The position numbers and the translations under genes are program-made. Below, in pieces: positions 14,829 through 30,769 of a DNA stretch of 45,689 nucleotides. The stretch lies in assembly GCA_900770075.1 (NCBI GenBank), contig CAAGIZ010000208.1:1-45689 (forward strand). Reading direction: 5' to 3'. The notes beneath the pieces are model-generated. The model did not search any database. It saw only the letters and a list, made by a program, of their open reading frames with translations, and had not been told where the DNA came from. The number at the start of each line of letters is the position of its first letter. Position 1 is the stretch's first letter. The stretch comes from Spirochaetia bacterium. Its GTDB lineage: Bacteria > Spirochaetota > Spirochaetia > Treponematales > Treponemataceae.

Positions 14829-14965
14829 ACGGGCGTTTCCCCTCACATCCGTTCGGGACCGCTATGTCCGCCCTTCGCTTTGCGCTCATTCAGGAGATTT
14901 CTGAGTTTCCTTCGCAAACTCAGAAATCTCCTGAACGCCTTCGGCGGGGCTACCAGCGCTAACGC
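14829..14965. repeat. Structured intergenic element, copy A (four-way junction in a Flavo-1-like frame)
   Basis: ACGGGCGTT...TCC-GCCC-TTC-GC(tttgc)GC-TCA-[perfect 20-bp stem 14889-14935]-CGCC(ttc)GGCG-GGGC-TACC...AACGC. Confidence 0.8.
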
Positions 14966-14973
14966 AAACTCCG

Positions 14974-16149
14974 TCAGTTTATTCCGTCTGCTGTCTTGCA
15001 GAAAACAATGTTAAACCGGGAAGTAAGTTCCGGAAACCTCTTTAAATATTCAGACCGTATTTTCGCTTCCACAGCGACTTTTTTTGCAGGATCCACAATA
15101 GCCATGGCACAGCCGTTAAAGCCGGCACCGCTAAAGCGTCCGCCGTAAATTCCATCTGTATCTTCCATTATATCCTGCAAAACTTTCAATTCATCGCTTC
15201 CAGTTTCATATTTTTCTATGGAAGACCTTCCGCTTTCAAAAATCAGCCTGCCGAACTCTTTCAAATCTCCGCTCTGAAAAGCCTTAACACCTTTTTTTAC
15301 CCGCTCATTTTCCGAATAAAAATGATCAGCCCTCTTTGCCCAGTTGGCAGGAAGCCTGTCCCTGTACTGCAAAAAAACACCGTAAGGCACATCCCTCAAA
15401 AAAGAATCAGCGAATTTTCCGTATTCAATATGGGAAAAACCTTTTAGAGCATAGCTGGCAGCCTTGCACTCATCCACCCGCATATTATAGGCAGAACTGG
15501 CAAGTTTTCTTTCCAACCCGGAAAAAATCACCGCAATTTCAAAATCCGGCATAGATTCCGGGATTTTTATCAGTTTTGCAGAATCAGTTTTTGTGTCCAG
15601 ATAAAGCAGGTTGTTTTTTCTGGAAAAAATTTCGCAGCTTTGATCCAGCTTGCCTACATTTACGCCAATAAAATTTCTCTCTGCATCCAGAGCAAGGTTT
15701 AAAAGTTCTACAGAAGTAAGGTTTATGTCGTTTACAAAAGCCAAAGCTTTTAGATATGTTAAAAGCACGCTGGCAGAAGAAGAAAGTCCTCCCCCCAAAA
15801 CAGCACCCGAAACAACCCCCTTAACACCTTTTGTCAGGATGTATGATTTTTTTAACACGTAAGCGGCTGCAAAAAGATAATCCGCCCAGGTATACTGTCT
15901 TTCATACTCTTCGTTGAAATTTCCTAAGGCAGAGCCTTCAAAATTTTCAGAATAAACTTCTACTTCACAGTTATCTGCCTCAAAAAAAGAAAATTTTGTT
16001 CCCTTGTCAATTGCAAAACCAGTAACAAGCCCCAGCTGGTGATCTACATGGGCACCTAAAGGGCAAACCCTGTAAGGACAGAAAAAATCATGAACTTTTT
16101 CAGCATTTTCATTATTTTTGATAAATGACTTTATTTCTTCTTTGGACAT
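14974..16149 (-). CDS. GHMP sugar-1-kinase, galactokinase family, most like plant galacturonokinase
   Basis: PYRVCPLGAHVDHQ, GGGLSSSAS, GKLDQ and GGRFSGAGFNGC motifs. Confidence 0.8.
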   Translation of the reverse strand: MSKEEIKSFIKNNENAEKVHDFFCPYRVCPLGAHVDHQLGLVTGFAIDKGTKFSFFEADNCEVEVYSENFEGSALGNFNEEYERQYTWADYLFAAAYVLKKSYILTKGVKGVVSGAVLGGGLSSSASVLLTYLKALAFVNDINLTSVELLNLALDAERNFIGVNVGKLDQSCEIFSRKNNLLYLDTKTDSAKLIKIPESMPDFEIAVIFSGLERKLASSAYNMRVDECKAASYALKGFSHIEYGKFADSFLRDVPYGVFLQYRDRLPANWAKRADHFYSENERVKKGVKAFQSGDLKEFGRLIFESGRSSIEKYETGSDELKVLQDIMEDTDGIYGGRFSGAGFNGCAMAIVDPAKKVAVEAKIRSEYLKRFPELTSRFNIVFCKTADGIN

Positions 16150-16171
16150 ACTTCCATTATATCATTATAAT
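16143..16171. promoter_or_regulatory. Back-to-back overlapping sigma-70 promoters for the kinase (-) and GT8 (+), both probably leaderless
   Basis: Minus strand: TGaTATAAT (16156-16164), 6 nt before ATG 16149. Plus strand: TGGACA-17-TATAAT (16143-16171), 7 nt before ATG 16179. Confidence 0.65.
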
Positions 16172-16178
16172 TTCAAAT

Positions 16179-17198
16179 ATGAAATATGTTTACGTTTTAA
16201 CCTCAACTGCAGCAGACCTGTACTACGAACAGGCATTGATGTCCGCCTATTCCCTCAGAAAACAGATGCCGGATTCCGAAATAATCTTTCTTGTAGACGA
16301 CAAGACTGAAAAATCCTTTACAGAAGAAAACAGACGCCTTGCCCTAAAAAATTACGCTTCCAGAATAATCTCAGTTCCTTTTGAGGCGGACGTTCCAAAC
16401 ATCGACCGTTCCCGCCTCATCAAAACTTCAATTCCACAGTACGTAGAAGGCTCTTTTCTTTACATCGACTGCGATACCATAATCTGCGAGGATTTAAGCG
16501 ACATAGAAAAGGAACAGGCTGTAACAGCCGGTGTTCTGGACGGACACTGCCTGCTAGATGAGCATATTCACAAAAAGTACTTTCTCCAGAGAGACAAAAA
16601 ACTGGGCTTTTCCGGTACAAAAAAAGCCGGCTATAACATAAACGGCGGGCTGATTCTGGCAAAGGCAGATACACCGGAACAAAAAGAGCAGACAGTTTCT
16701 CTTTTCAAAGAATGGAACCAGTGCTGGAAGTATTCGGCCTACCAGAAAAAAGACAAGCACGACCAGTCCGCCCTCAACGAAGCAAATTTCAGGACAGGAT
16801 TAAAGATGCAGCTTCTGGACGGAAAGTGGAACTGTCAGCTGAGCCACGGCGGTCTAGCCTTCTTAAAAGATGCAAAGATAATCCATTACTATTCAAGCGA
16901 GTTTTCAGGAAAAAGCTATCTGCCGTATTACAGGCTTGCAGACAAAAAAATTCTAGAACAGATAAAAGAATGTGGTGACATTCCCGAGGAAATAAAGGAA
17001 ATGATAGACAATCCAAAGTTTCAGTTCAACAGTGTACACCTAATAAATGACCAGCGGGTTGTAAGCATAATGCAATCACCACTGCTTTTTACCATTGCCG
17101 ACCTGAAAGCCCATTGCCCGACCCTCTTCAATTTTCTGGAAGCCGTCTGTGCCAGTTTACGCAGGCTGGGTAAACTTCTAAAAGGCAATAAAAAATAA
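16179..17198 (+). CDS. Glycosyltransferase, GT8-like
   Basis: LYIDCDT (DxD), NGG, DQSALN, WNCQ, IIHY. Start moved to ATG 16179 (MKYVYVLTS). Confidence 0.75.
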   Translation: MKYVYVLTSTAADLYYEQALMSAYSLRKQMPDSEIIFLVDDKTEKSFTEENRRLALKNYASRIISVPFEADVPNIDRSRLIKTSIPQYVEGSFLYIDCDTIICEDLSDIEKEQAVTAGVLDGHCLLDEHIHKKYFLQRDKKLGFSGTKKAGYNINGGLILAKADTPEQKEQTVSLFKEWNQCWKYSAYQKKDKHDQSALNEANFRTGLKMQLLDGKWNCQLSHGGLAFLKDAKIIHYYSSEFSGKSYLPYYRLADKKILEQIKECGDIPEEIKEMIDNPKFQFNSVHLINDQRVVSIMQSPLLFTIADLKAHCPTLFNFLEAVCASLRRLGKLLKGNKK

Positions 17199-17214
17199 CT
17201 TCCCACCACCACAA

Positions 17215-17254
17215 AAAAAAATGCTGATTGCACCGACACAATCAGCATTTTTTT
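17215..17254. terminator. Bidirectional intrinsic terminator (GT8 / cimA)
   Basis: AAAAAAATGCTGATTG ... CAATCAGCATTTTTTT. Confidence 0.85.
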
Positions 17255-18859
17255 CTAAATTATCTTGGAGTATTTTCTCTCCAAATCTTTTATAAGTTTG
17301 TATTCAAAGGAATCTGCCAGGGCAATGTAGGAAGCCTGAATTATGTCGCTGGCAACGCCCATGGTGCTCCAGGTGTTTTCCCCGTCGCTGGATTCAATCA
17401 AAACCCGCACGGAACTGGCCGTAGCCCCCTTTCCGTCAAGAACGCGAACCTTATAGTCAGTAAGGTGGATTTTTGCCACCGCAGGATAAAACTGCACCAA
17501 AGCCTTTCTCAGTGCCGTATCCATGGCATTTACAGGACCATCCCCTTCACCCGCAGTTATAACCGCATTTCCGTCCACATCAAGCTTTACCTGAGCAAAG
17601 GCACTCTGGTCGTCCGAAAATCTCGGAAACTCTCCGCTGGTCTTGTAATAATGCAGGTTGAAAAAAGGCTCGTATTTTCCCATGGTTTTTCTCACGAGAA
17701 TTTCAAAACTGGCATCCGCACCTTCAAACTGGTAGCCTTCATGTTCCAGTTCCTTAACCCTCTTTACGATTTCTGCAACAACCGGACTGTTTTTTGTCAG
17801 CGTTCTGTCGAATTTCTGGACTTTTTCAACAATCATGCTCTTTCCGGCAACTTCGCTCATAAGGAACACCCGTTCATTTCCCACAGTTTCCGGCTCAATG
17901 TGCTCGTAGGCAAAAGGATTCTTTATAACCGCATCAATGTGCATTCCAGCCTTGTGGGCAAAGGCACTGGCACCAACAAAAGGCATTCCCGGTTCAAGGG
18001 CAATATTTGTAATCTCTGCAATTTTCTTACAGATTGGAGTCAAAAGCTTCATATTTTCTTCAGGAATACAGTCAAATCCAAGCTTCAGCTGCAAATCTGC
18101 AATAATCGTCGAAAGATTGGCATTGCCCGTCCGTTCACCGAACCCCAAAAGAACCCCCTGAACATGAGAAGCACCGGCTTCAACGGCAATTAGCGAATTT
18201 GCTACGGCAAGACCGCAGTCGTTATGGGTGTGAATTCCAATCTCAACGGCATTTCCAAAGCGTCCGTAAACCGCTTCAACAGCCTGCCTGCATTCAGAAG
18301 GCATGGCTCCCCCCTTGGTTTCACAGAGGGAAAGGCAAACCGCCCCTCCTTCAACAGCCGCTTCCAGAGACTTGAGGGCATATTCAGGATTAGCCTTGTA
18401 CCCGGTAAAAAAATGTTCTGCGTCAAAAATTACGTTTTTTCCTTTGGATTTAAGGTAAGAAACAGTATCCCGAATCATTTCGAGGTTTTCGTCCAAAGTT
18501 GCATGCAGGATTTCCGTCACCTGAAAATCCCATGTCTTTCCGAAAATGCACACATATTCAGTATCGGCGGACAAAAGGCTCTGCAAATTTACGTCCTCTG
18601 CACAAGCCAGATCCCTGCGCCTCGTAGAGCCAAAGGCAACGATTTTTGAGTTTTTAAGCTTCAATTTTTTTGCTTCTAAAAAAAACTCCATGTCCTTAGG
18701 ATTGCTTCCGGGATTTCCTGCTTCAATAAAGGTTATTCCCAGTTCGTCCAAAGCCAAAACAATGTTTATTTTATCCTGAACCGAATAACTTATTCCTTCT
18801 CCCTGAGAACCGTCGCGTAAAGTTGAATCCAAAACCGAAATTTTTTTTCTATCTGCCAT
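17255..18859 (-). CDS. cimA: Citramalate synthase (DRE-TIM, LeuA/CimA family)
   Basis: DSTLRDGSQGEG, FGSTRR, DAEHFF, HTHND, GERTGNA, SAFAHKAGMH, and C-terminal regulatory GDGPVNAMD. Confidence 0.88.
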   Translation of the reverse strand: MADRKKISVLDSTLRDGSQGEGISYSVQDKINIVLALDELGITFIEAGNPGSNPKDMEFFLEAKKLKLKNSKIVAFGSTRRRDLACAEDVNLQSLLSADTEYVCIFGKTWDFQVTEILHATLDENLEMIRDTVSYLKSKGKNVIFDAEHFFTGYKANPEYALKSLEAAVEGGAVCLSLCETKGGAMPSECRQAVEAVYGRFGNAVEIGIHTHNDCGLAVANSLIAVEAGASHVQGVLLGFGERTGNANLSTIIADLQLKLGFDCIPEENMKLLTPICKKIAEITNIALEPGMPFVGASAFAHKAGMHIDAVIKNPFAYEHIEPETVGNERVFLMSEVAGKSMIVEKVQKFDRTLTKNSPVVAEIVKRVKELEHEGYQFEGADASFEILVRKTMGKYEPFFNLHYYKTSGEFPRFSDDQSAFAQVKLDVDGNAVITAGEGDGPVNAMDTALRKALVQFYPAVAKIHLTDYKVRVLDGKGATASSVRVLIESSDGENTWSTMGVASDIIQASYIALADSFEYKLIKDLERKYSKII

Positions 18860-18873
18860 ACCCCATTATACAA

Positions 18874-18910
18874 AAAAAAATCCCGATTTTTCAAGAACCG
18901 GGATTTTTTT
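18874..18910 (-). terminator. Intrinsic terminator downstream of the che operon
   Basis: AAAAAAATCCCG ... CGGGATTTTTTT inverted repeat. Confidence 0.75.
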
Positions 18911-18924
18911 AGATTTTTTATGAT

Positions 18925-19062
18925 ACGGGCGGCTTTTTTGCCGTCACGCCGGCAAAAAAACAGGTGTTCCGTACTTCGCCGTCTTCGCGGCTCATCGTAA
19001 AAACAGCGTGCTGAAGCCCGCTGTTTTCACGACTGCTACGCAGGTACTACACCCCTTGCCGC
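18925..19062. repeat. Structured intergenic element, copy B
   Basis: ACGGGCGGC...TTCC-GTAC-TTC-GCCG(tcttcg)CGGC-TCA-[14-bp stem 18995-19032]-CTGC(tac)GCAG-GTAC-TACA...GCCGC. Confidence 0.8.
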
Positions 19063-19071
19063 AGAAAACTT

Positions 19072-19506
19072 TTATTTTACTGCAGCACCGATGCGCTCAA
19101 GAACCTTCTTGCGGTCAAGAGGCTTTACGATATAATTTTTTGCCCCAAGTAAAAGAGATTTTTTTACAAGTTCTTCTTTTCCCAAAGCAGAAACCATTAC
19201 GACCCTCGCATTTTTGTCAAAAGCCATAATCTGTTCCAAAGCCGTAATACCGTCCATACGCGGCATGGTTATATCCATCGTAACCAAATCCACATTCGGA
19301 CAAAGTTCCTTATATTTATCCACACCGTCCTTACCATCAACTGCCGTTGCCACAACTTCATAACCTTCAGACGTAAGAATCTGTCCAAGCTGTTTTGCAA
19401 CAAAGATTGAGTCATCAACGATAAGTACACGGATTTTCGTGCCGTCAACTCTTACACCCTCTGGCGGACGTTCATTGATTGATGGGAAATCCTGTTTAGT
19501 TTTCAT
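19072..19506 (-). CDS. cheY: Chemotaxis response regulator CheY (spirochete type with N-terminal extension)
   Basis: VLIVDDS, TMDITMPRMDG, VSA, IVKP; last gene of cheAWXY. Confidence 0.92.
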   Translation of the reverse strand: MKTKQDFPSINERPPEGVRVDGTKIRVLIVDDSIFVAKQLGQILTSEGYEVVATAVDGKDGVDKYKELCPNVDLVTMDITMPRMDGITALEQIMAFDKNARVVMVSALGKEELVKKSLLLGAKNYIVKPLDRKKVLERIGAAVK

Positions 19507-19525
19507 GTTGCTGCCTCCTCAATAT

Positions 19526-20008
19526 CTACATACGTTCGCGGATTGCGACGTTAATTTCCACTTTGCCACACTCTGTAATAAGAGGAACAATCAGTGCTTC
19601 TACAGTATCTGCCTGTCCGCCCAATGCAGCAATTTCCATTTTTTCCCCTGCAAAAAGAGCAGGAGGAGTCAAGTCAAACTTAAATCCCAGTTCGTGCAGT
19701 TTTGTTACGGCCTGAGCAGTGATAAGGTTAGCCAGTTCACTGATTGTTGCCTTTGCCAGTTCATCAAAGGAAGCGAGGGTTTCGCCGTTCATCTTTGAAG
19801 CAATGTTCAAGGCAGTTTCGTAAGACATATCAAAAAGAACACGTCCTTCTACATCACCTGCAAGACCTACAAGTGCTGCTACACCCATCACAGGCATAGC
19901 CGTTGATTTCAAGTACAAATCACCACGTTTTACATCGGCACCACCAAGAACTTCCTTAAGGATTTGGAAAGAAGTTTCAACAAACGGGTTGATATATTCT
20001 ACTCTCAT
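19526..20008 (-). CDS. cheX: CheY-P phosphatase CheX
   Basis: MRVEYINPF, GLAGDVEGRV, ISELANLI (ExxN), DLTPP. Confidence 0.92.
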   Translation of the reverse strand: MRVEYINPFVETSFQILKEVLGGADVKRGDLYLKSTAMPVMGVAALVGLAGDVEGRVLFDMSYETALNIASKMNGETLASFDELAKATISELANLITAQAVTKLHELGFKFDLTPPALFAGEKMEIAALGGQADTVEALIVPLITECGKVEINVAIRERM

Positions 20009-20043
20009 AATTTTCTCCCTGTCTATATTTTATTTTGTAAAAA

Positions 20044-21489
20044 TTACTTTGCAAAAACGGTAACGGCACCGTCTTTTCTGGCTGACCAGTTACCATTTCC
20101 CTCCAATGTTTCATTCTGCCCGAGAATGATTACACCGTTTCCTTTCAGTTTTTCGTCAAAATCATTTATGAGATTTTTCTGAGAACTTTCAGGAAGGAAT
20201 GAAATCAAATCCCTTGCAAAAATTATATCACAAACCGGCAAAGAATTCGTATTGGCACAGTCGTGATACTCAAACATAATACTGTTTTTTATATCGGAAG
20301 TAAAAGTAAAATCAGAATTTGCCTTATTTGTCAGATAAGGGGCATACCAGCCGTTTGCAACTTCTGCAGGAACACTCAGCAGAGGTGCATTGGATACATT
20401 GAGCAAATCAATGTCATGGGCATAAATCCTGATTTTTGCCTCAGGATAACGTTTTTTCAGTATGCAGGCAAGGGAATAGGTTTCCATACCCTTTCCGCAT
20501 CCAGGATTCCAGACCGTAATCTGTTTTGCAGCGTTGTCCGGCAGAACTTTTAAAATTGAATCTGCATACTCTTTTGTCCACCAGTTGCCAGAACACGGAG
20601 AATAAAAACTCTTCAGGAACTCTTCTGCATCCTCAGTAGAAGAAAACTGGATTTTATCCTCGTCCCGTTCTTTCTGCCATGAAGCAAAACGATCTTTTAC
20701 CCAATTTTCGTTTACGCTGCTGACTGTAAACTTACGCATCTGGGCAAGGGATTCTGCAATAAACTTAAGCTCGCTTCCTTCTGTTTTTCCGCTTTTTTGC
20801 TCAGAAGAACCGGCTGAAAAATCAGAAACACTAAGCTTCTCGACTGGAGCGGCTTTTGCAGTGATTTTTGCGTTATGAGCCATGTTTGCACGGGCTGTTT
20901 CTTCTTCTATCGCCTGCGCTTCGGTTTTTGAACCAAAAATCTTTTCTATATCGAGAAGAATGTAAAGCCTGTTGTTTACCTCTACAACACCCTGAATATA
21001 CTTTATGTTGATGTCACCAAAGAGAGGATGCGGCGGCTGAATTGTAGCCTTCTGGATTCCAACAACCTTGTCGATGACATCTACAACTATACCGAAAGTC
21101 TGCTCACCGATAGAACAGATCAGCATATTTTCCAAGGAACCTTCCTGCCTTTCTTCTACTTCAATGTTGAAAAAAAGCCTCAGATCAAAAATAGGAATTA
21201 TATCGCCCCTGAGATTGTATACTCCAAGGACAAAAGGAAGGGTATTTGGAACATAGGTAAAACGTCCTGCTTTTGCGATTTCCTTTATCTTCATTATGTC
21301 GATGGCATAGTCTTTTCCTGCCAGAGAAAAAGTTACCATCTTGTAGTCAATCTGAGCGAGTTTTTCTTTTTTTTCTGCAGAGTCCTGGGCAGCATCCGGC
21401 ACAATGCTGGCATATGCTCCCAAATTCTGAGCCAAAGCCGAATTTATGGTCTTTTCTTCCGTGTTATTCTGAATATTTTCATTAGCCAT
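20044..21489 (-). CDS. cheW: CheW with a C-terminal CheR-like domain
   Basis: VTFSLAGKDYAIDI...GVYNLRGDIIP (CheW); WNPGCGKGMETYSLA (CheR-like). Confidence 0.88.
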   Translation of the reverse strand: MANENIQNNTEEKTINSALAQNLGAYASIVPDAAQDSAEKKEKLAQIDYKMVTFSLAGKDYAIDIMKIKEIAKAGRFTYVPNTLPFVLGVYNLRGDIIPIFDLRLFFNIEVEERQEGSLENMLICSIGEQTFGIVVDVIDKVVGIQKATIQPPHPLFGDINIKYIQGVVEVNNRLYILLDIEKIFGSKTEAQAIEEETARANMAHNAKITAKAAPVEKLSVSDFSAGSSEQKSGKTEGSELKFIAESLAQMRKFTVSSVNENWVKDRFASWQKERDEDKIQFSSTEDAEEFLKSFYSPCSGNWWTKEYADSILKVLPDNAAKQITVWNPGCGKGMETYSLACILKKRYPEAKIRIYAHDIDLLNVSNAPLLSVPAEVANGWYAPYLTNKANSDFTFTSDIKNSIMFEYHDCANTNSLPVCDIIFARDLISFLPESSQKNLINDFDEKLKGNGVIILGQNETLEGNGNWSARKDGAVTVFAK

Positions 21490-21506
21490 GATAAACCTCT
21501 TTTGCC

Positions 21507-23876
21507 TTATTCAATAGCCCCATATTCAGAGCGTGCTTCAATCTCCTGACGAACTCCCAGTTCAAGGAGCTGGCTTACATCGATAATCAGCGAAACGGAA
21601 CCGTCACCCAATATTGACGCACCGGCTATTCCCGGAGACTGGGTAAGCTGGTCGCGCAAAGGCTTGATTACCACGTCTTCCTCACCAATCAGGGCATCAA
21701 CCATAATGCCTATTTTCTTATCCTGAGTTCCTACTATTACGACAAAGCAGTATTCTCCGTCTTCCGTATTGCGGATATTGAAAAGCCTGCTGAGCCTAAG
21801 CACGGATATAACCTCGTTGCGGACGTTGAGGACTTCGTAGTTGTCGATGGTGTTTATTTCTCCACGTTTTATGCGGTGGCTTTCGATAACGGATGCGATA
21901 GGAATGGAATAAACCTCCTTTCCGACACGCACCAAAAGCCCCTGAATAATCGCCAGTGTAAGGGGAAGCCTGATTGAAAACTTTGAACCCCTGCCCTTTT
22001 CTGTGGTTACGTTTACGGTTCCGTTGAGCTTGTCAATCATGGTTTTTACCACATCAAGCCCGACACCCCGACCGGAAACATTTGTTATTTTGCTTGCCGT
22101 TGAGAAGCCTGGCATGAAGATAAGGTTTGCTGCTTCCTGATCCGTAAGGACTTTGTTCGGATGAATAAGCCCCTTTTCCACAGCCTTTTTCCGGACTTTT
22201 TCCGTATCGATTCCGCCACCGTCATCAACTATATCGATGATAATCATATTACCTTCGTTGGCAGCCTTTAAGAGAACCGTACCTGTATCGCTCTTTCCTG
22301 CCGCTTTGCGGGCTTCCGGAGACTCGATTCCGTGGTCTACGGAGTTACGGACACAGTGCATTATAGGATCCATAAGGTCATCGATAACAGTCTTGTCCAG
22401 TTCTGTTTCTTCACCTTCAATCTGAAGATTTACCTTTTTACCCAAATCTTTCTGCAAATCCCGGACTACTCTCGGGAAACGGTCGAAAATCTGACTGATA
22501 GGAACCATTCGGATTTTCATTACGCCTTCCTGCAGTTCTCCGGCAATGCGGCCGAGGTTTTGGGTTGCAGAATGGAATTTTGTATTCAAGTCCTTAAATT
22601 TTGCTTCGAAAGAGGCAAAATATTCCGGAAGTTCTCCATATTCCTGCATGATATTGTTTCTTATGTCTTTTACAGAAACACCGTTTTGAATTTCTTCCAG
22701 GAACTGCGGAAGCTGTTCAAACATCTTGCGGATTTTTTCCCTAAAGGAAGAATCGAGAGCCTGAAACTGAACCAGCATGTCAGACTGCTGCTGGGCACTC
22801 TGGTTGAAGGACGCTTTCGTGATTACGGTTTCGGACACCAGATTCATAAGGGTGTCTATGCGCTTTGAATCCACCCGGAGGATTGAACTCTGCTGTGCAT
22901 GACCAGAAGCCGGAGCATTTTTTGCAGCCGGCGCTTTTTTTGCCGCCTGTAAATTTTCCCTGCCTTCATCTTTAGGTTCGTCCTGTTTTGCCGGCTGGGT
23001 TGCAGGCTGTTCGGGTTCAGCAGAAACTGCAGGTTTTTCCAGCTGATCCTGCACTGCGCTTTCCTTTGCAACAGCATTATCCAGACACTGGGCATCAACG
23101 CTTAATGTTACGTCGTCCAGAAAAGCTGCGTCTTCCAGCTGTTCCTGTGTATTTGAGGAAGCCACATAATATACTACATCCCGGTGGAATTCGTCTTCGT
23201 AAAGGACGTCAAAATCAGGAACGGTTTTAAGGACAGTTCCGCTTGCTTTAAGGGCTGCAAAAACCTGAATGCCGCCGACGCTGTTCATAGGGTTATTTTC
23301 GTCAAAGACAACACTGACTGACCAAAGTTTTTGACCGGACTGGCAGCTCTGCTTGAGTTCCAGAAGTTCAAATTCAGACATATCCACTGTCTTTGCGTTT
23401 GCAGCAGGCGCAGAGGCGGAGGGTACCGAAACAGGAGCAGGTTTTGGTGCAGGAGAAGCCTTTTCTGCCTTTCCGCCCTTTCCTGGAATCATTGACTTTA
23501 TCTTGTTAGAAATTTCTTCTACGCTTTCGCCGTAAACAGAACCGTTCTGTCTGGCTTCCAGCATAGCTTTTATGATATCGAGGGAATTGAGAAGCGTGTC
23601 TACTACATCTTCAGTTACTTTTACACGATCCGAGCGCACTTCATCAAGAAGATCTTCCATAGTGTGGGCAAAAGTTGAAATTTCTGAAAATTCAACGGTA
23701 GCCGAGTTGCCTTTTAAGGTGTGGGCAGCACGGAAAATCTCATCGATGGCATCATGATTGTTCGGGTCATTCTCTATTGCAAGGATATTGCTTTCGAGAT
23801 TATCCACCATGAGTTCGGCTTCAGAAAAATAGTCTTTAAGCAGTTCTTCGTTGTTAGCGTCAAGAAAATCACTCAT
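21507..23876 (-). CDS. cheA: Chemotaxis histidine kinase CheA
   Basis: IFRAAHTLKG (Hpt), RNSVDHGIE, DDGGGI, FMPGFST, SGRGVGLDVV, C-terminal CheW domain. Start at ATG 23876 (MSDFLD). Confidence 0.96.
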   Translation of the reverse strand: MSDFLDANNEELLKDYFSEAELMVDNLESNILAIENDPNNHDAIDEIFRAAHTLKGNSATVEFSEISTFAHTMEDLLDEVRSDRVKVTEDVVDTLLNSLDIIKAMLEARQNGSVYGESVEEISNKIKSMIPGKGGKAEKASPAPKPAPVSVPSASAPAANAKTVDMSEFELLELKQSCQSGQKLWSVSVVFDENNPMNSVGGIQVFAALKASGTVLKTVPDFDVLYEDEFHRDVVYYVASSNTQEQLEDAAFLDDVTLSVDAQCLDNAVAKESAVQDQLEKPAVSAEPEQPATQPAKQDEPKDEGRENLQAAKKAPAAKNAPASGHAQQSSILRVDSKRIDTLMNLVSETVITKASFNQSAQQQSDMLVQFQALDSSFREKIRKMFEQLPQFLEEIQNGVSVKDIRNNIMQEYGELPEYFASFEAKFKDLNTKFHSATQNLGRIAGELQEGVMKIRMVPISQIFDRFPRVVRDLQKDLGKKVNLQIEGEETELDKTVIDDLMDPIMHCVRNSVDHGIESPEARKAAGKSDTGTVLLKAANEGNMIIIDIVDDGGGIDTEKVRKKAVEKGLIHPNKVLTDQEAANLIFMPGFSTASKITNVSGRGVGLDVVKTMIDKLNGTVNVTTEKGRGSKFSIRLPLTLAIIQGLLVRVGKEVYSIPIASVIESHRIKRGEINTIDNYEVLNVRNEVISVLRLSRLFNIRNTEDGEYCFVVIVGTQDKKIGIMVDALIGEEDVVIKPLRDQLTQSPGIAGASILGDGSVSLIIDVSQLLELGVRQEIEARSEYGAIE

Positions 23877-23883
23877 AAATAAT

Positions 23884-23911
23884 ATTTTAACCTTTAACAC
23901 CCCAAAGTCAA
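23884..23911 (-). promoter_or_regulatory. Sigma-70 promoter of cheA (probably leaderless)
   Basis: TTGACT, 16-nt spacer, TAAAAT, 7 nt, then ATG; no SD. Confidence 0.6.
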
Positions 23912-23970
23912 GCAATAAAAAAAAATTTTATACGAGAGGCAAGCAGAAGCCCCGCATTACAGGAAGAGCC

Positions 23971-24069
23971 AGCCCGGATTGAAAAGGCGGCACAGCCGTT
24001 TCAGGGGAACACAGGAAATTCCTGTGTTCCCCTGAAATGAAGGCGAAAGCCGGAACCTTGGAAAGCCGG
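23971..24069. repeat. Structured intergenic element, copy C (inverted relative to A, B and D)
   Basis: AGCCCGGATTGAA-AAGG-CGGC(aca)GCCG-[perfect 19-bp palindrome 23999-24037]-TGA-aGGC(gaaa)GCCg-GAA-CCTT-GGAAAGCCGG. Confidence 0.8.
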
Positions 24070-24159
24070 TTAAGGAGAAGACAAGGTGCAGGCAAAAAAA
24101 GCTTAAATCTTCCCTATAATATGCTGCCTTAAAAAAAAACACACATTTTGATTTTTTAT

Positions 24160-24187
24160 TAAAGTACAGTTCCTTTCATGCCGATAA
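24160..24187 (+). promoter_or_regulatory. Sigma-28 (FliA/SigD) promoter
   Basis: TAAA (24160-24163), 16-nt spacer, GCCGATAA (24180-24187): full consensus, 35 nt upstream of the ATG. Confidence 0.8.
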
Positions 24188-24222
24188 TAAAAAGCAGGGT
24201 TTTAACCTGCGGAGAAAAGACT

Positions 24223-25446
24223 ATGAAACTGATAAAAAGACTGTTTTTTACTGCTGCCGCTTTTTGTGTTTTTGCTGCTTCGGGCTCTGTCTGGGCAACT
24301 TCTTTTAACGGTTATGCGGGAATGAAAGGCGACTTAAAATCTGCTGAGGCCTCGGATTATTTTGACCCTGTAATGAATTTGACTGGATTTTTCAAGGGTC
24401 AGTTTAATTTTTCGGACAGTCTTTTTTTTAACACGGAAGTGAGCATTTCGACCGGGGATGTAATCGATACTAAACTGACGGATGACACTGAGGCTGTTTT
24501 CTGTTTTGATGAACTTTCGCTTACCTACAGGAAGAATTTTCTGGGCAAGACTCAGTTTTTCAGCATTTTTAAGGGAAATTTCTGTTCCCTGGGCTCAAAC
24601 CAGTTTTTGACACAGCAGTTTGGCATTGCTCCCGTTACCAGCATGCTGACGGAAAGTTTTTTCGGCAATAAGACGGCTTCTCCCTGTCAGATAAACGGGC
24701 TGGGTTTTTCTTATGCACTGAAGCTTAATTCAAAACCTGTTTCTTTTGCAGGCTATGTCTACAAAAATTACGAAAATGAAAGCGGAATGAAGCAGTATAA
24801 TTTTGATTTCAGGCTTGCTGCCGTGAACAGATTCCTGACGGTGGACTTTCTGGCTGGTTTTGGTGCGCCTTCAAAGGATCAGAAAGACGGAAGTGACGTT
24901 TTTCTTTTGATTGACGAAATATACCTGCACAGCGGTATTGACCTTCTTCTGGGGAGCGAATGGCGGACTTCCCTTTTTGTTCAGGCGGGGTTTGCTTCCC
25001 TTCCTTTAAGCAGTTATAATTCAAAAATTGAAATTTCCGACGAAAGCCTGTTCCTGCTCCTTGAACCCCGATTCAGACTGAACAATTCCCGGCTGCACGT
25101 TTCGCTGTTCAATATTCCTAAAGATCAGATTAAAAAGACTGACTTTGCTGACGGAACAATGGGTCTTTCCATCAACATCTTTACCGACAGTCTGTTTTTC
25201 CGAAATAAAAACATAAAATTCGGCTTTAACCTGTCTTTCAGCTATGAAGACCGTTATCTGATGGATTTGTCCGAATTTGATGACTTTTTTGCGGACAGCT
25301 GTTCCGTACAGGCAACCCCTTATTTCGGTTTTCCTGTATTTTCCGGAAACCTAACCATGATGTTCCAGACTAAGGTGAGCGAATTTCCTTCAGGCCACCT
25401 GTCCAAAAACATAAACTTTACGCTGGGCTACAAGTCTTATTTTTAA
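24223..25446 (+). CDS. Hypothetical exported protein, putative outer-membrane beta-barrel
   Basis: GGAG SD, signal peptide MKLIKRLFFTAAAFCVFAASGSVWA, alternating aromatic/hydrophobic strands, C-terminus FTLGYKSYF. Confidence 0.6.
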   Translation: MKLIKRLFFTAAAFCVFAASGSVWATSFNGYAGMKGDLKSAEASDYFDPVMNLTGFFKGQFNFSDSLFFNTEVSISTGDVIDTKLTDDTEAVFCFDELSLTYRKNFLGKTQFFSIFKGNFCSLGSNQFLTQQFGIAPVTSMLTESFFGNKTASPCQINGLGFSYALKLNSKPVSFAGYVYKNYENESGMKQYNFDFRLAAVNRFLTVDFLAGFGAPSKDQKDGSDVFLLIDEIYLHSGIDLLLGSEWRTSLFVQAGFASLPLSSYNSKIEISDESLFLLLEPRFRLNNSRLHVSLFNIPKDQIKKTDFADGTMGLSINIFTDSLFFRNKNIKFGFNLSFSYEDRYLMDLSEFDDFFADSCSVQATPYFGFPVFSGNLTMMFQTKVSEFPSGHLSKNINFTLGYKSYF

Positions 25447-25476
25447 AAAGACATAAGGTCGCAGGGAACCCTGAAA

Positions 25477-25556
25477 AAAAAGGGCTGTTCCGAAAGTATC
25501 TGTTCAGATGCTGAAAACAAGTTCAGCATGACAATACTTATCGGTCAGCCCTTTTT
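25477..25556. terminator. Long imperfect hairpin / bidirectional terminator containing a TGTC-type REP-like core
   Basis: AAAAAGGGCTG..CCGA.AAGTAT...ATACTT.TCGG.CAGCCCTTTTT enclosing AGATGCTGAAAACAAGTTCAGCATGACA. Confidence 0.65.
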
Positions 25557-25576
25557 AAATTTTGAGTGACACTTTT

Positions 25577-26800
25577 TTACAGTTTCAGCATCGAAAGCCT
25601 GCGGCAGGCTTCTTCAATGTCTGAGCGGTGTCCGAAAGAACTGAAACGTATAAAACTTTCTCCGGCCGGTCCGAAACCTGACCCCGGCGTGGTTACCACA
25701 TGGCACTCGTCGAGGATTTTGTCAAAAACGTCCCAGCTGGTCTTTCCCGGGAACTTTGCCCAGACATAAGGACCGTTTCCGGTAAAATAGGCAGTAACTC
25801 CGGCTGTCTTAAAGTTTTCCTTTTCCAGAGCGGCTTTTATGAGGCGGCCGTTTTCCAGATAGTAATCCACCTGGGCCGTCATGTCTTTAAGTCCCTGCTG
25901 GTCAAGGGCTGCCAGTCCCCCAGCCTGTGCGATGTTTGAAGCACCGTTAAAGAGAGTTGTCATTACCCTGTTCCAGTCCCGGTTTACGCTTGAGCCGTCT
26001 TCAAATTTAAGCTCGTTGGGCACCACAGACCAGCCGAGGCGGACTCCCGTAAAACCTGCCGGCTTTGAAAATGAATTTACTTCGATTGCGCAGGTTTTTG
26101 CTCCCGGTATTTCGTAAATCGTTTTAGGCAGATTTTCATCGCGGATAAAGGCAAAATAAGCCGCATCGTAGATAATTATGCAGCCGTTTTCGTTTGCAAA
26201 ATCTACTAATTTTTGTAACTGTTCTTTTGTTGCCGTAGCTCCAGTTGGATTGTTTGGCGAACAGAAGTAAATCAAGGTATTTTTTTCTATTTTTGACAGA
26301 TCTGGAAAAAAATCGTTCTCTGGAGTACACGGAAGGTAGGAAATTCCTTCGTAACCTTTGCCGTTGTTTTTTCCGGCGGCTCCCGTCACCACAGAACCGT
26401 CCACATAGACCGGGTATGCCGGATCCTGAACCGCTACGTTTACCTGTGAACCGAACAGGGTCTGGATGCGGGCAATGTCGCATTTTGCACCGTCAGAGAT
26501 GAAAATTTCGTCTGCATCTGCCATTCCCGGGTAAAATACTTCGGCAATTTTTGCGCGCAGGGCGGAATTTCCCTGTTCATCTCCATAACCTGAGTATTCT
26601 TCCGGGGTTGCAAGGGCAAGGGCATAATCTGCCATCGCTTTTGCAATATATGGTGAAAGGGGCTCGGTTGTGTTTCCGATTCCGAGGCTGATTATCTTTG
26701 CCTCCGGATGAGCTGCCGCATATTCCCTACGGCGACGGGCTACTTCCGGAAAAAGATATCCGGCAGTAAGATTTGAAAAACCTGTATTTCTTTTTATCAT
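25577..26800 (-). CDS. dapL: LL-diaminopimelate aminotransferase
   Basis: GYLFPEV, ISLGIGNTTEPL, SDGAKCD, DPAYPVY, CSPNNPTG, SFSKPAGFTGVRLGW, TPGSGFG. Confidence 0.93.
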   Translation of the reverse strand: MIKRNTGFSNLTAGYLFPEVARRRREYAAAHPEAKIISLGIGNTTEPLSPYIAKAMADYALALATPEEYSGYGDEQGNSALRAKIAEVFYPGMADADEIFISDGAKCDIARIQTLFGSQVNVAVQDPAYPVYVDGSVVTGAAGKNNGKGYEGISYLPCTPENDFFPDLSKIEKNTLIYFCSPNNPTGATATKEQLQKLVDFANENGCIIIYDAAYFAFIRDENLPKTIYEIPGAKTCAIEVNSFSKPAGFTGVRLGWSVVPNELKFEDGSSVNRDWNRVMTTLFNGASNIAQAGGLAALDQQGLKDMTAQVDYYLENGRLIKAALEKENFKTAGVTAYFTGNGPYVWAKFPGKTSWDVFDKILDECHVVTTPGSGFGPAGESFIRFSSFGHRSDIEEACRRLSMLKL

Positions 26801-26890
26801 AATAAAGAGATTTTACTGAAGGAAGAGGGTTGTTTCAAGATAAAGGGCGGGTAAATGCAGGGTAAAGGCAGAACCAAACAACAGTTCTTT

Positions 26891-28861
26891 TTACGAATTT
26901 GAATAGCCCTCAGGGCCCTTTACATCTTCAAAATCGGGTTTTTCATATTTTCCCCGGCGGACAAAACCTTCATCGTAATAGAAGGTAACGCTTTTTACGT
27001 TTGCCCTTACTTCATCTTTTTCATCCCGCACAAAGATTTTTACACCGGCATAGACCGTTCCCGAAACATAAACCTTGCCGATGTTTTTAAGTTCCCTCAG
27101 GTGGGCAAGAATCTCTTCGATTTCCTTATTGAATTCGTCGTTTTCTCGGCTGAGTTCATTTTTTCTCAGGTTAAACCTCTTCAGGCTTTCTTCTTTTTCG
27201 GCAGGCAAAACCCTGCGCACCTTTTTTGTATTTTCAAGAGTCTGTATGTTAAGTTCCAGTTCATCCAGTTCTTTGAGCGCCTTCTCCTGCATTTCCCGCA
27301 GATCTTCAAGCCTGTGCTTTGCCCGCGGGTCGATGCCAACTTCGATGACAGTTTCCGTACCTCCACCGGCAGAACCGATATTCTTTGCCAGAACGGTTTC
27401 CGTTGCAAAAAGATGACCGCCCGTAATCTGGGCACGCTTTCCCTGAAGGATTATCCTGTGCTGGGCCGAAACTTCGCAGTTCATTATGGAATCCTGAACG
27501 ATTACGTTTTCTTCAACCTCCACCCTTGAGTTCTGTATGAATTTTGCCCAAAGAGAGCCGCCGCAGAGAATTTTACATTCATCCCTGCCCACTATTCCGT
27601 GGCTTACGATTATATCACCGTCGCTTTCCAGAGTGCTGGCTCCCACTTCTCCATTGACTTCGATATTTCCGCTGGCCTTTACATTGTATCCGTCTTCTAC
27701 GTTTCCGTTCACGATTACAGTGCCCAGGAACGTTATGTTTCCTGATTTGATGTTTACCCCGTCTATTTCCATAATCGGTTCAACATTTATTTTATCGTTT
27801 ATAAGAAGAACCTGTCCGTTGCAGGCAGCAAGGATTGTCCTTCCGTCGGAATCCAGAGTAACGTTTTTACCGAGAGGGAGATTGATATCTTTTCCGTTTT
27901 TTGCTTCAAGATAGCGTCCGAAAAGGGTTTTACCAGACTTACCCCGTTCAGGCAACATTTTTTGGGCAAGGGGCTGACCTTCGACAACGTTCTGGATAAG
28001 GTTGAGTTCCTTAAAATCGACTTGTCCATTGGCAGCCTCTTTTGCCCGCATTTTTGAACGGTCGGTTTCAAAATTATAGGCGATGTAGGCATCCCTTCCG
28101 TCTACAGGAAGCACAGCCTCCGCTACGACAACAGGAACGTTATAGGAAGGCCTGTCCACAAGAGCTTCAATTTTTTCGTCAGAAATTCCGGCAACCACTC
28201 CCTGTCCTTTCAGGGCTGTTTCTATCTGGCTGTGGCTTACATCAGCACCGCCCAAAGCCGGAGGATTTATGGTACAAGTTGCCTTGAGTTCGTCTTTTGA
28301 AATATCCACAACAAAAATTGCATCGGCCGCTGGATTTCTTGAATAATGACCGACAGTTTCGTAGACCCCGCCTGTTCCCTTTGCTGCAAATTTTTTTATA
28401 AGATTTTCGTCAAAATCCACAGTATCGGGGCGTTTTATGTCGTTTAAAATGTCCGCAAGATTTACAGGCTTACCTTCGCCCACAGGAAGATTGACCTTCA
28501 GGCAAATATCCGTTCCAAAGTGGTGCAGGAAAAACTCTCCGTCCCTGTCGATGTTTTCGATTTCTTCGTCCATGTCCATAAGACCGGATTTCTGAAGTTC
28601 CTTAAATTTAGCACTTTTGGCAACAGATTCGGCATTCTGATATACGGTTATGAACCAGGGTCTTTTTGCAATTCCAAAAAAACCGTCAAAACCTTTTTCT
28701 TTTACTTCATACTCCAGATTTGAAACTTTTGTATTCAGCTGAACGGCCGCATCGGCAAGGGCTTCATCGAGGGTATCAGCGTGAACTTCTACGCTCCTTA
28801 CGCTCTGATCCAGTTTTTGAAGTTCAGCCATGTCCAGCCGGATTTTATCAAGTGTTACCAT
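26891..28861 (-). CDS. FapA/DUF342 family protein with an N-terminal Jag_N-like domain
   Basis: EALADAA...EVKEKGFDGFFGIAK (Jag_N-like); VDFKELNLIQNV, GNITFLGTVIVNGNV beta-helix and a coiled coil; follows fliA. Confidence 0.8.
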   Translation of the reverse strand: MVTLDKIRLDMAELQKLDQSVRSVEVHADTLDEALADAAVQLNTKVSNLEYEVKEKGFDGFFGIAKRPWFITVYQNAESVAKSAKFKELQKSGLMDMDEEIENIDRDGEFFLHHFGTDICLKVNLPVGEGKPVNLADILNDIKRPDTVDFDENLIKKFAAKGTGGVYETVGHYSRNPAADAIFVVDISKDELKATCTINPPALGGADVSHSQIETALKGQGVVAGISDEKIEALVDRPSYNVPVVVAEAVLPVDGRDAYIAYNFETDRSKMRAKEAANGQVDFKELNLIQNVVEGQPLAQKMLPERGKSGKTLFGRYLEAKNGKDINLPLGKNVTLDSDGRTILAACNGQVLLINDKINVEPIMEIDGVNIKSGNITFLGTVIVNGNVEDGYNVKASGNIEVNGEVGASTLESDGDIIVSHGIVGRDECKILCGGSLWAKFIQNSRVEVEENVIVQDSIMNCEVSAQHRIILQGKRAQITGGHLFATETVLAKNIGSAGGGTETVIEVGIDPRAKHRLEDLREMQEKALKELDELELNIQTLENTKKVRRVLPAEKEESLKRFNLRKNELSRENDEFNKEIEEILAHLRELKNIGKVYVSGTVYAGVKIFVRDEKDEVRANVKSVTFYYDEGFVRRGKYEKPDFEDVKGPEGYSNS

Positions 28862-28888
28862 CCGAAACTCCTGAAAACCCGCCGGAAG

Positions 28889-29686
28889 CTAGATGATTCC
28901 CTTTCGGAAATTCGTAAGCTTTGCCCGAAGCCGGAGGTTTGCCTTTGTATGGAGCTGTGAAATTCTGGATTCGCTTACTTCAAGAACCTGTCCAATTTCC
29001 TTAAAAGTCAAGTCTTCGTGGTAGTAAAGGACAATGACCATCTTTTCTTTTTCCGGAAGTTCGTTTATTGCCTGCAATATTACCTTTTTTATTTCTTCAC
29101 GCTCAACCTGAACATCAGGATTAAGGATTGACGGAGCTTCTATGGTATCCCCTATGGAAAGGCGGTCGCTGTCGTCTCCAGAATTCCATACATCGTTCAG
29201 GGAAACTATGCTTGAGGCGCTGACCTTCATTATGGTCTGATGGTACTCTTCTTCCGAAAGGTTCATCTGCCTGGCAATCTCTGCATCCGTTGCAGTCCTT
29301 CCCAGCCTTGATTCCAGTTCGCTTATGGTTTCTTCGATTTCCCTTGATTTCTGCCGGACTGACCTCGGAACCCAGTCAAGTTGCCTCATTTCGTCAAAAA
29401 TCGCTCCGCGGATTCTCGTAACGGCATAGGTTTTAAACTTTACGCCCTTTTCTAGATCGTATTTATGGATAGCATCGAGGAGCCCGAACTGACCAAAACC
29501 TACAAGGTCGTCAAACTCCATGCTGGCAGGAAGACCTACAGAAACCTTACCGGCAACGTATTTTACAAGGGGCATATACTGCCTTATAAGCCTGTCGCGC
29601 AGTTGAGCAGATTTAGTCTTTTTGTATTCACTCCAGAGTTTATCCTCTTCTTCGCTGTTGATTACTAACGTCTGTTCTGTATTCAT
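28889..29686 (-). CDS. fliA: Flagellar sigma factor sigma-28 (FliA/WhiG)
   Basis: GLLDAI, KFKTYAVTRIRGAIFDEMRQLDWVPRSVR, LTFKEIGQVLEVSESRISQLH. Confidence 0.95.
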   Translation of the reverse strand: MNTEQTLVINSEEEDKLWSEYKKTKSAQLRDRLIRQYMPLVKYVAGKVSVGLPASMEFDDLVGFGQFGLLDAIHKYDLEKGVKFKTYAVTRIRGAIFDEMRQLDWVPRSVRQKSREIEETISELESRLGRTATDAEIARQMNLSEEEYHQTIMKVSASSIVSLNDVWNSGDDSDRLSIGDTIEAPSILNPDVQVEREEIKKVILQAINELPEKEKMVIVLYYHEDLTFKEIGQVLEVSESRISQLHTKANLRLRAKLTNFRKGII

Positions 29687-29777
29687 ATCTTCCTTATCTC
29701 TTATATATTAGTGTTTTTTTCAAAACTCTAAATAGAGCCTGCTTACGGAAACTCCGGAAACAAAGTTTTCAGGGTTC

Positions 29778-30545
29778 CTAATGCCGGTCTTTTTCCAGCA
29801 GGGTGCGGACAGCCTGAGCCATTATATCCGCATTCTGAGAACCAGGTTCTGCTCCGCCTGAAAAAGCATTTCCTCCAAAGCCGCTTCCCCTGACGGATGC
29901 AAAATCACTGTCTTTTATTATATCACCACTTAAATTATTTTTCACGCTGTCTGACAAATCTTCGATTTCGGGCAATTCGTCCACATCATCGATTGTCGAA
30001 CCGTCAGAAAAAACATTCACCTTGTTTGAAGAATCTCCCGCATTTGAAGGAATGTCTTTTGTAAGCGTAGAATCCTGCCGTTCAGCTTCAGGAGTTTTTG
30101 CAGAAATATCCTGTATTCCGGCCGGAACAAAGGCAGGAGAGGCTTCTTCTGCAGGAGCAGGATTTTGTTTTTCAGGAGAATTGTACTTGTGCAGTTCTTC
30201 CCCGGAAATTCCCTGACGGTTGTTTTCTACAAAGAATTTGGGACTTTCCTCTTCATCTTCCAGACCGTCATCGGAGATAACGATATTTACGTTGTCCCCA
30301 GATTTCTGCTTTGATTCCCTGTCAGATAAACCGTTTTCCCCTTCTAAAGCGATGTTTTTTGAATTTTCCGCCAGAAATTTGGCAAAAAGGAAGGATACCC
30401 CAAATGCAAGAGCAGTAAAGACAGCCGAAAAAATCAAAGACCGGGTAAAAACCGAAAGCAGGGGATTTTTTGCAGCTATTCCTATAAGAAATGACAAAAC
30501 AAAACCGCAAACAGCCGCATAACCGATGGACTTTTTGTTCATCAT
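29778..30545 (-). CDS. Hypothetical membrane protein (2 N-terminal TM helices, acidic disordered tail)
   Basis: ORF co-oriented between flhG and fliA; GGGAGG SD before the ATG-ATG at 30545; C-terminal MAQAVRTLL. Confidence 0.7.
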   Translation of the reverse strand: MMNKKSIGYAAVCGFVLSFLIGIAAKNPLLSVFTRSLIFSAVFTALAFGVSFLFAKFLAENSKNIALEGENGLSDRESKQKSGDNVNIVISDDGLEDEEESPKFFVENNRQGISGEELHKYNSPEKQNPAPAEEASPAFVPAGIQDISAKTPEAERQDSTLTKDIPSNAGDSSNKVNVFSDGSTIDDVDELPEIEDLSDSVKNNLSGDIIKDSDFASVRGSGFGGNAFSGGAEPGSQNADIMAQAVRTLLEKDRH

Positions 30546-30623
30546 ATCTCCTCCCACCTAAAAGATTAAGGCAAAAAAGCCACAAGGTCAAGTTTTTTAA
30601 ACCTGAGCACATCCACCGTCTCG

Positions 30624-30720
30624 CCGGCTTTCCGCCCTTCGCCGTCTTCCGCGGCTCATCCATAACAACGGCCCGAAAGCCGTTGTTATGGACTGCCTTG
30701 CAGGGGCTCCAATCCGGGCT
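30624..30720. repeat. Structured intergenic element, copy D
   Basis: CCGGCTTTCC-GCCC-TTC-GCCG(tcttccg)CGGC-TCA-[perfect 14-bp stem 30659-30692]-CTGC(ctt)GCAG-GGGC-TCCAATCCGGGCT. Confidence 0.8.
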
Positions 30721-30769
30721 AAGTCCGCCGGAAATAACGGCAAAGACCAGTCTTCCCTAGGGTTTCCTT

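Follow-up and report, generated by a model that had tools for sequence, protein, structure and literature searches.

What kind of element sits between the genes of this locus, conserved in its fold but hardly in its sequence? The window (all 45,689 nt of contig CAAGIZ010000208.1 of a Spirochaetia bacterium) carries chemotaxis and flagellar genes, and in four of its intergenic spaces a sequence-only reading had seen a dispersed four-way-junction repeat, either a non-coding RNA module or a single-stranded DNA (ssDNA) substrate for a mobilising nuclease. On balance, we lean towards a dispersed, non-autonomous repeat of the Flavo-1 family, similar to repetitive extragenic palindromes (REP), which acts as folded ssDNA. 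The window is contig C208 of the home genome, G000, a 2.35-Mb assembly in 258 contigs that is 89% complete. The four copies, named on the strand that folds and scored with covariance model R2, are the following:

Copy A, 14831..14965, minus strand: type-1 frame, in which helix P0 closes an outer three-way junction and a CC tail follows; four-way core 14870-14950, with the variable arm P3 at 14889-14935; 47.1 bits; between the genes for galactokinase (14974-16149, minus) and a nucleotidyl transferase (14052-14804, minus).
Copy B, 18927..19062, minus strand: type-1 frame; core 18971-19047, P3 18995-19032; 59.0 bits; between cheY (19072-19506, minus) and the citramalate synthase gene (17255-18859, minus).
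Copy C, 23970..24069, plus strand: type-2 frame with 4-nt junction strands, its 3′ end past 24069 not fixed; core 23984-24059, P3 23999-24037; 61.7 bits; between the divergent cheA (21507-23915, minus) and an open reading frame (ORF) of 422 aa (24178-25446, plus).
Copy D, 30604..30721, minus strand: type-2 frame; core 30634-30707, P3 30659-30692; 58.8 bits; beside the stop codon of a gene for an FlhG/MinD-like ATPase (30770-31657, minus), with an ORF (29778-30557, minus) on the other side.

All four copies lie where they had been reported, with the P1 and P4 pairs and the long P3 palindromes described, and each folds better than any of 200 shuffles of its sequence (both strands, DNA parameters; z −4.4 to −7.6). 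The folding strand, however, is almost certainly the reverse of the one on which the motif had been written. Matches to the Flavo-1 model of Rfam fall on this opposite strand. Isolated mismatches within P3, read there, comprise 40 G·T against 9 A·C, an imbalance with p = 9e-6, besides 15 G·G, 13 A·G and 6 others. Of 184 copies parsed in the home genome, 181 fold lower on the Flavo-1 strand with DNA parameters and 171 with RNA parameters. Read on this strand, the junction words TCA and TTC become TGA and GAA, more often TGNA and GNAA; they had been called invariant, which applies to only 27 of the 184 copies.

The repeat is much more numerous than four copies suggest. The plan P1-TTC-P2-TCA-P3-P4-P1′, as first written, has 19 matches in the home genome, compared to 0-1 for each of 13 other pairs of junction words and 1, 0 and 0 in three shuffles. 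A grammar on the opposite strand retrieves the 184 distinct copies, with 0 in two shuffles and the reversed sequence, and with a second grammar the count rises to 275, its shuffled and reversed controls being likewise empty. Another 48 matches, mostly intact variants or copies cut by contig ends, come from a profile search. The junction repeat thus numbers about 300 copies and covers about 1.5% of the assembly, and the proposal of an expanded repeat conserved in fold rather than sequence stands (at least 275 copies, with covarying pairs). A repeat finder failed to pick up the family. Copies lie mostly beside housekeeping genes, in either orientation, and genes between neighbouring copies are mostly ordinary. 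No neighbouring gene family is common to the copies; among 52 copies parsed from other genomes, the only one shared has an ABC-transporter member.

On the folding strand, an outer stem with a GNA/GNA internal loop leads into a four-way junction. The two junction words measure 4/4 nt in 157 copies, including copy C, and 3/3 nt in 27; mixed lengths do not occur. Since their lengths always match, we infer that the words pair with each other, covariation pointing to one Watson-Crick pair (T-A) followed by sheared G·A pairs. The closing T-A pair is swapped for C-G in one subfamily and in the bacterial family f17. Paired words leave a four-way junction without unpaired bases, whose arms are P1, a short GNA-capped hairpin (P4), the long and freely exchanged palindrome P3 (11 to 126 nt) and an arm (P2) starting with T-A or C-G and then tandem G·A or GNA/GNA. 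The outer stem repeats the GNA/GNA loop of this last arm, with G/G as the commonest loop middle in both (outer loop 101 of 184, inner loop 97 of 157). The pair beside the outer loop, which the first grammar did not demand, is Watson-Crick in 184 of 184 copies and occurs as four pair types; the purine mismatch in the outer stem flips between A·G (112) and G·A (54), and all five outer pairs examined change on both sides. For 40 chosen copies, pairing holds in 97.2% of cells, and both sides vary in 17 of 19 pairs, in a count for which four of the six helices had been required by the search. The covarying outer helix reported for copies A and B is general among type-1 copies, which make up 149 of the 264 copies with full flanks: P0 is closed in 128 of the 149 compared to a mean of 58 (maximum 70) with shuffled arms, and CC follows the helix in 104.

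Two structural variants were observed. In a subfamily (G000 C166:18414, C236:6, C129:2048, C240:10012 and about 18 more), a pyrimidine-rich internal loop replaces the outer GNA/GNA loop while the junction is kept. In many copies, for instance on C7, C10, C13, C66, C90, C184 and C219, the outer hairpin P5 holds a second short palindromic repeat, presumably of a kind known from REP-like repeats of Bacteroidota.

The suggested kinship to Flavo-1, with the junction domain set into its frame, is borne out by alignments, by rows of the original Flavo-1 alignment and by 29 classic copies. With the Rfam model (RF01705), the best score in the home genome is 30.6 bits, below the gathering cut-off of 42 (40 matches; 150 of 699 candidates scored). 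An Rfam scan of the window yielded no family reaching its cut-off and reported no Flavo-1 match there; in the genome search, the model matches copy D at 19.4 bits (model positions 1-76, window 30617-30724). Searches of the genome and of relatives returned many further copies. The cautious label "possibly undescribed" fits the junction domain and its expansion, but not the outer frame, which is that of Flavo-1.

Next, we asked in which nucleic acid the fold acts, and the loops suggest that it is probably DNA rather than RNA. On the folding strand, P4 is capped by cGNAg in 111 of the 184 copies, on the other strand in none. P2 carries cGNRAg in 44 copies, cG(N3)Ag in 36, cGNYAg in 19 and cGNABg in 17, while about 68 have other loops, mostly longer bulged forms. 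In-register cUNCGg loops are rare, numbering 3 on the folding strand; on the strand first written, 31 such words seemed present, of which 6 were left once counting was limited to hairpin arms of the 184 copies. GNA triloops closed by C-G are described as unusually stable in DNA in a part of PMC3201870, and the title of its reference 14 names cGNNAg and cGNABg as stable DNA tetraloop classes. Similarly, a section of PMC11014236 reports that GGA/GGA loops make guanine zippers in DNA. Of the two options offered initially, the loop census therefore favours the ssDNA substrate; the nuclease or mobiliser to go with it was not found.

Copies very probably spread by insertion. A pattern for the 3′ half matches 143 of 150 genomes of the genus (median 4, range 0-175, 16 genomes with at least 30; 148 in the home genome; 0-4 for reversed-pattern controls), so that copy number varies more than 100-fold. 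With the covariance model, the closest three relatives have at least 144, 139 and 112 copies (from 150 scored candidates per genome), Treponema pectinovorum ATCC 33768 has at least 127, T. ruminis RU1 44 and T. parvum ATCC 700773 12. Named records carrying the motif are mostly Treponema, which together with the chemotaxis and flagellar genes of the window suggests that the home genome is a treponeme. Among 150 genomes of the phylum, the model matches 8 of 10 in the home family, 6 of 16 in family f17 (genomes of 3.9-4.5 Mb) and 0 of 124 others. The junction form was found only in spirochaetes: neither 11 classic Flavo-1 loci nor 150 genomes drawn from the phylum to which a Bacteroidales bin belongs contain a match to the model. 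The repeat also occurs, beside treponeme-like genes, in bins labelled Parabacteroides distasonis, Collinsella and Lachnospiraceae (L119/L151, which is G315 with 140 copies; L174/L188; L154/L196); one of them has flagellar rod genes, and these bins are probably mislabelled or mixed with treponemal DNA.

Empty sites, which the sequence-only reading proposed to look for, exist in relatives at all four window positions. At site A, the galactokinase and nucleotidyl transferase genes abut without a copy in 4 of 4 relatives shown, and stop and start codons overlap in two. Site B is empty in G196 and G221, is occupied by a type-2 copy in G272, and in G023 a variant adjoins cheY. Site C is empty in G196, G221 and G023, with a gap of N bases in G272. 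Copy D is missing from all of the 29 best-matching of 148 relatives. Over 400 kb of G196, 24 syntenic sites were scored as empty and 5 as occupied, at least one "empty" site holding a diverged copy. Copies at shared sites always have the same orientation and mostly the same frame type, with P3 exchanged. At 8 orthologous sites (72 pairs), 13 changes are compensatory and 3 are not, a count biased upward as most of those pairs were demanded by the search. In two close genomes, substitutions amount to 2.4% in copies versus 5.8% in upstream flanks. G196 and G221 have 14 of 17 syntenic copies in common; all 3 G196 copies missing in G221 are partial deletions, none a clean empty site. From empty sites, kept pairing and deletions we conclude that copies insert, persist under selection on the fold, and go by deletion. 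No target-site duplication was readable at the compared sites due to the divergence of the relatives. Copy D has no match in plasmid or phage collections, and three viral pattern matches were dismissed as chance.

Some copies are preceded by a companion unit. Of 258 copies whose flanks are long enough, 23 have their own first 9 or more bases repeated upstream (shuffled mean 0.9), and 22 have an inverted copy of their own 5′ end immediately before them (shuffled mean 1.3). Between these repeats lies a unit of three hairpins and about 100 nt, whose DNA-type GNA/GNNA loops are read on the opposite strand (54 vs 11). Its profile has 71 matches. In 43 of these a copy follows immediately, and many of 22 others belong to tandem arrays as further units. 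In G000 the unit, often in tandem arrays, is seen at C24:4-240, C33, C117, C176, C204:11846-12134, C225 and elsewhere; none of the four window copies has it, and 17 metagenome matches of its pattern have no gene in common. The companion may be a guide-like device or a product of template switching.

The observed fold, gained and lost between genes across Treponema while old copies keep pairing, would fit the following course. The strand would be freed transiently, by negative supercoiling behind RNA polymerase or by replication; P3 would nucleate extrusion; a protein would read shape and G·A loops instead of sequence; and new copies would have been made in trans by an enzyme that processes ssDNA, the likeliest being an HUH/Y1 transposase of the IS200/RAYT superfamily. 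Going further, Flavo-1 and the junction form could make up one shape-defined class of chromosomal ssDNA in two phyla, with its own mobiliser and no RNA role, the fold resembling a Holliday junction with G·A zipper loops and the inverted target 5′ end of the companion serving as a base-pairing guide in DNA. We regard this extension as speculative and rather improbable.

That a Y1 enzyme is the mobiliser is itself a tentative proposal. The best lead is one treponemal IS200 clade whose left end contains an arm, T-GNA-GC-loop-GC-GNA-A, like P2 of the repeat. The arm is present in 9 of 10 loci of this clade that keep the left-end hairpin and in 0 of 10 other Y1 loci (3 of these with less than 100 nt upstream). 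Genomes holding the arm-bearing clade contain more copies (median 12 vs 4, p = 0.004; at least 30 matches in 5 of 17 versus 11 of 133 genomes), but this test was post hoc, one of three, made among kin, and defines the clade from 28 loci only. A part of PMC6006769 describes the ends of IS200 as acting in the form of ssDNA, so that the shared arm also counts towards the DNA reading. In the arm-bearing loci (L366, L060, L403, L406, L408, L414, L420, L421, L424), the arm lies about 170-220 nt upstream of the Y1 match; the left end of this clade is longer than the usual single hairpin, and a multi-hairpin tandem-G·A stretch precedes the right end. Separately, Y1 genes of two Bacteroidota-side genomes (L465:1229-1956, L466:932-1933) have Acido-Lenti-1 matches on either side, at 26-31 bits and so below the cut-off of 37. 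Acido-Lenti-1, an RNA in Rfam that here flanks Y1 in the manner of a REPtron (a tnpA-REP gene flanked by its repeat), may also be a REP-like DNA repeat.

Several results weigh against a mobile repeat acting as ssDNA. First, no mobiliser is linked to it: Y1, Y2, integron integrase, GIY-YIG and reverse transcriptase (RT) genes have no consistent physical link to copies, and the linked RAYT/HUH or GIY-YIG gene that the sequence-only reading proposed to look for was found neither in the home genome nor in the relatives' Y1 loci searched. No Y1 gene exceeds the cut-off in G000, G221, G272 or G156, and none is listed for G238 or G312. Y1 occurs in 46 of 150 relatives, and its presence does not go along with copy number overall. 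Parsing of 28 of the relatives' Y1 loci gave no intact copy; a partial one is located some 400 nt upstream of a single IS200. Classic Flavo-1 is present in 4 of 20 Y1 loci of Bacteroidota and does not flank the gene on both sides in any of them. G000 and all four relatives with at least 100 matches are outside the arm-bearing IS200 set. No REPtron was found; since G000 is incomplete and each search covered its 28-30 best Y1 loci, this does not prove its absence. Y2 is present in 1 of 150 relatives, the GIY-YIG search returned one 734-aa protein only, and the sole RT gene of G000 (341 aa, C180:26275-26811) is at least about 1.7 kb from the nearest copy. Second, the copies show neither a fixed guide tetranucleotide nor a cleavage site or a target duplication, and the upward bias of the compensatory count and the lack of clean empty sites between G196 and G221 weaken the case further. 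Third, GNRA is still the most frequent 4-nt loop. Finally, between co-oriented genes the folding strand is sense in 60 copies and antisense in 23 (p = 6e-5; 49 of the 184 copy contexts could not be resolved), whereas the link of orientation to GC skew is weak (73:54, p = 0.11) and a replication-strand bias is not significant.

The last two points belong to the alternative that the repeat is an RNA module, acting in mRNA leaders, trailers or spacers (by affecting stability, blocking nucleases or binding proteins) or being a small RNA itself, with copies made by recombination or by way of RNA. G·T (G·U) wobbles and tandem G·A pairs are compatible with RNA, and the three window copies between co-oriented genes are all sense. 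In Table 1 of PMC2864571 (Weinberg et al. 2010), Flavo-1 is judged a probable RNA, and a part of PMC9723704 notes that some 5′ transcribed regions of Flavobacterium psychrophilum coincide with Flavo-1; the same source places classic Flavo-1 both in transcribed regions, in sense or antisense, and outside them, which fits the DNA reading. If the non-template strand were displaced, a sense bias would result as well, so the bias does not decide between DNA and RNA, although it keeps an RNA role open. Against an RNA stand the dominance of cGNAg triloops in P4, the acceptance of GNYA and GNAB loops and the rarity of UNCG, the 23 of 83 copies that are antisense, the lack of a shared neighbouring gene family and the distance of the only RT gene of the home genome from any copy. 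A terminator reading was rejected as none of the window copies is terminator-like. Overall, we consider an RNA module unlikely, if worth keeping in mind.

A second alternative retains the DNA fold and dispenses with a dedicated mobiliser: an extrudable branch bound by a junction- or ssDNA-binding host protein (in the nucleoid, in replication restart or with a topoisomerase), whose copies would arise through recombination, gene conversion and template switching and be maintained by selection. The presence in 143 of 150 genomes of the genus would agree with it, as would orthologous copies that keep their orientation over long distances, the scarcity of decayed copies among the 48 profile matches, the occurrence of chimeric copies, the 8 of 27 close nearest-neighbour copies on the same contig, and the failure of every search to link an enzyme gene. 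However, copy A separates genes that adjoin directly in relatives, so its arrival calls for insertion without homology, and a more than 100-fold range of copy number within a genus is unusual for an essential site. We therefore hold a pure host site to be quite improbable.

Scattered attC sites of an integron integrase are very improbable and already largely refuted. An attC site is an ssDNA fold whose structure is kept while the terminal hairpin varies, which resembles the repeat. Four tyrosine recombinase matches were obtained in G000, one of them a C-terminal IntI remnant (C2:27193-27363) directly beside a copy. Further, (near-)identical direct-repeat copies flank one to three genes in a cassette-like manner at G115 C43:2549-4150 (L103, L111), at G221 C9:238-3319 (L311, L316) and in L192-L194; the 421-aa ORF in G115 has no Pfam or NCBIfam match. 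Yet end profiles contain no conserved RYYYAAC/GTTRRRY boxes in attC order, genomes with a full IntI hold fewer copies (median 3 vs 5; an IntI above the NCBIfam cut-off is present in 36 of 150 relatives), only 2 of 30 IntI loci have a copy, and neighbours are mostly housekeeping genes in either orientation. A self-cleaving ribozyme is hardly credible: the perfect four-way junction with internal loops on two neighbouring arms is reminiscent of the natural hairpin ribozyme, where the junction brings two internal loops together, but Rfam matches in the window and in six loci include no ribozyme family, the bases in the middle of the loops change freely, one subfamily has another outer loop, and the loops are of DNA type.

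Other features of the window were recorded as well. A terminator-like palindrome beside copy B (18872-18911), conserved in G196 and G221, overlaps a promoter-like site upstream of the citramalate synthase gene; a weak Thr_leader match is due to this palindrome. The ORFs beside copies C (24178-25446, plus) and D (29778-30557, minus) have no Pfam or NCBIfam match. In 28 of 29 relatives the latter also follows flhG, with 25-57% identity, and the stretch upstream of it, between ORF and copy D, is conserved in the closest relatives. At 39184-39336, imperfect coding repeats of 21-24 nt within a 400-aa FliN/FliY-like ORF (38836-40038, minus) encode a low-complexity Gln/Pro/Met/Gly linker.

Flavo-1 has been an RNA of unknown function in Rfam since 2010, and the hundreds of diverged copies described here allow its fold to be read in detail. 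As their variation points to DNA, a 15-year-old question becomes testable with oligonucleotides and with cultured strains holding 12 to at least 127 copies. If our preferred reading of a REP-like ssDNA repeat is true, about 1.5% of some treponeme genomes is a repeat largely missed by sequence-similarity tools and inserted within core operons for flagella and metabolism, and some further "RNA motifs" in the catalogues may likewise be REP-like DNA.

Among known systems, the attC sites share with the repeat a conservation of structure over sequence, the variable terminal hairpin and a single folding strand, but the repeat is branched, has no R and L boxes, is dispersed among core genes and has no link to IntI. 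With IS200/IS605, it has in common the G·A-loop arm at the left end of one treponemal clade and its tandem-G·A version before the right end. It differs in lacking the two subterminal hairpins of that insertion sequence and a fixed target tetranucleotide, and no such transposase gene was found in G000. REP, BIME and REPIN elements with their RAYT are similar in being intergenic, with hundreds of copies and about 1.5% of the genome, expanded in particular lineages, folded from a specific strand and joined into composite arrays, here with the companion unit. Nevertheless, the repeat has a multi-junction fold of 100-180 nt instead of the REP hairpin of 21-65 nt, its copies diverge widely within a genome, no REPtron was found, and in place of a fixed GTAG/GTGG foot the copy ends vary, the 5′ foot covarying with the 3′ end.

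The closest relative is Flavo-1. One row of its original alignment comes from NC_002967, which we take to be Treponema denticola. The repeat and Flavo-1 share the strand, the two frame types, the outer stem with its covarying pair, A·G mismatch and GNA/GNA loop, the outer helix and CC tail beyond the Rfam model, and a multi-copy, dispersed occurrence; the frame features are visible in the original alignment (PMC2864571, supplementary file 5) and in the 29 classic copies, which were parsed from 30 Bacteroidota-side loci. The difference is in the inner domain: classic Flavo-1 continues with a 2-bp stem and one unbranched hairpin, which in the 184 parsed copies is replaced by a 4-bp stem opening into the four-way junction. 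Among the papers that our searches covered, we found no description of the junction form, of its treponemal expansion or of a DNA reading of Flavo-1. Because the inner domain differs and the score lies under the Rfam cut-off, we classify the repeat, judging from sequence, as a variant of Flavo-1 and not as a member, with the frame of Flavo-1 and an apparently new junction domain.

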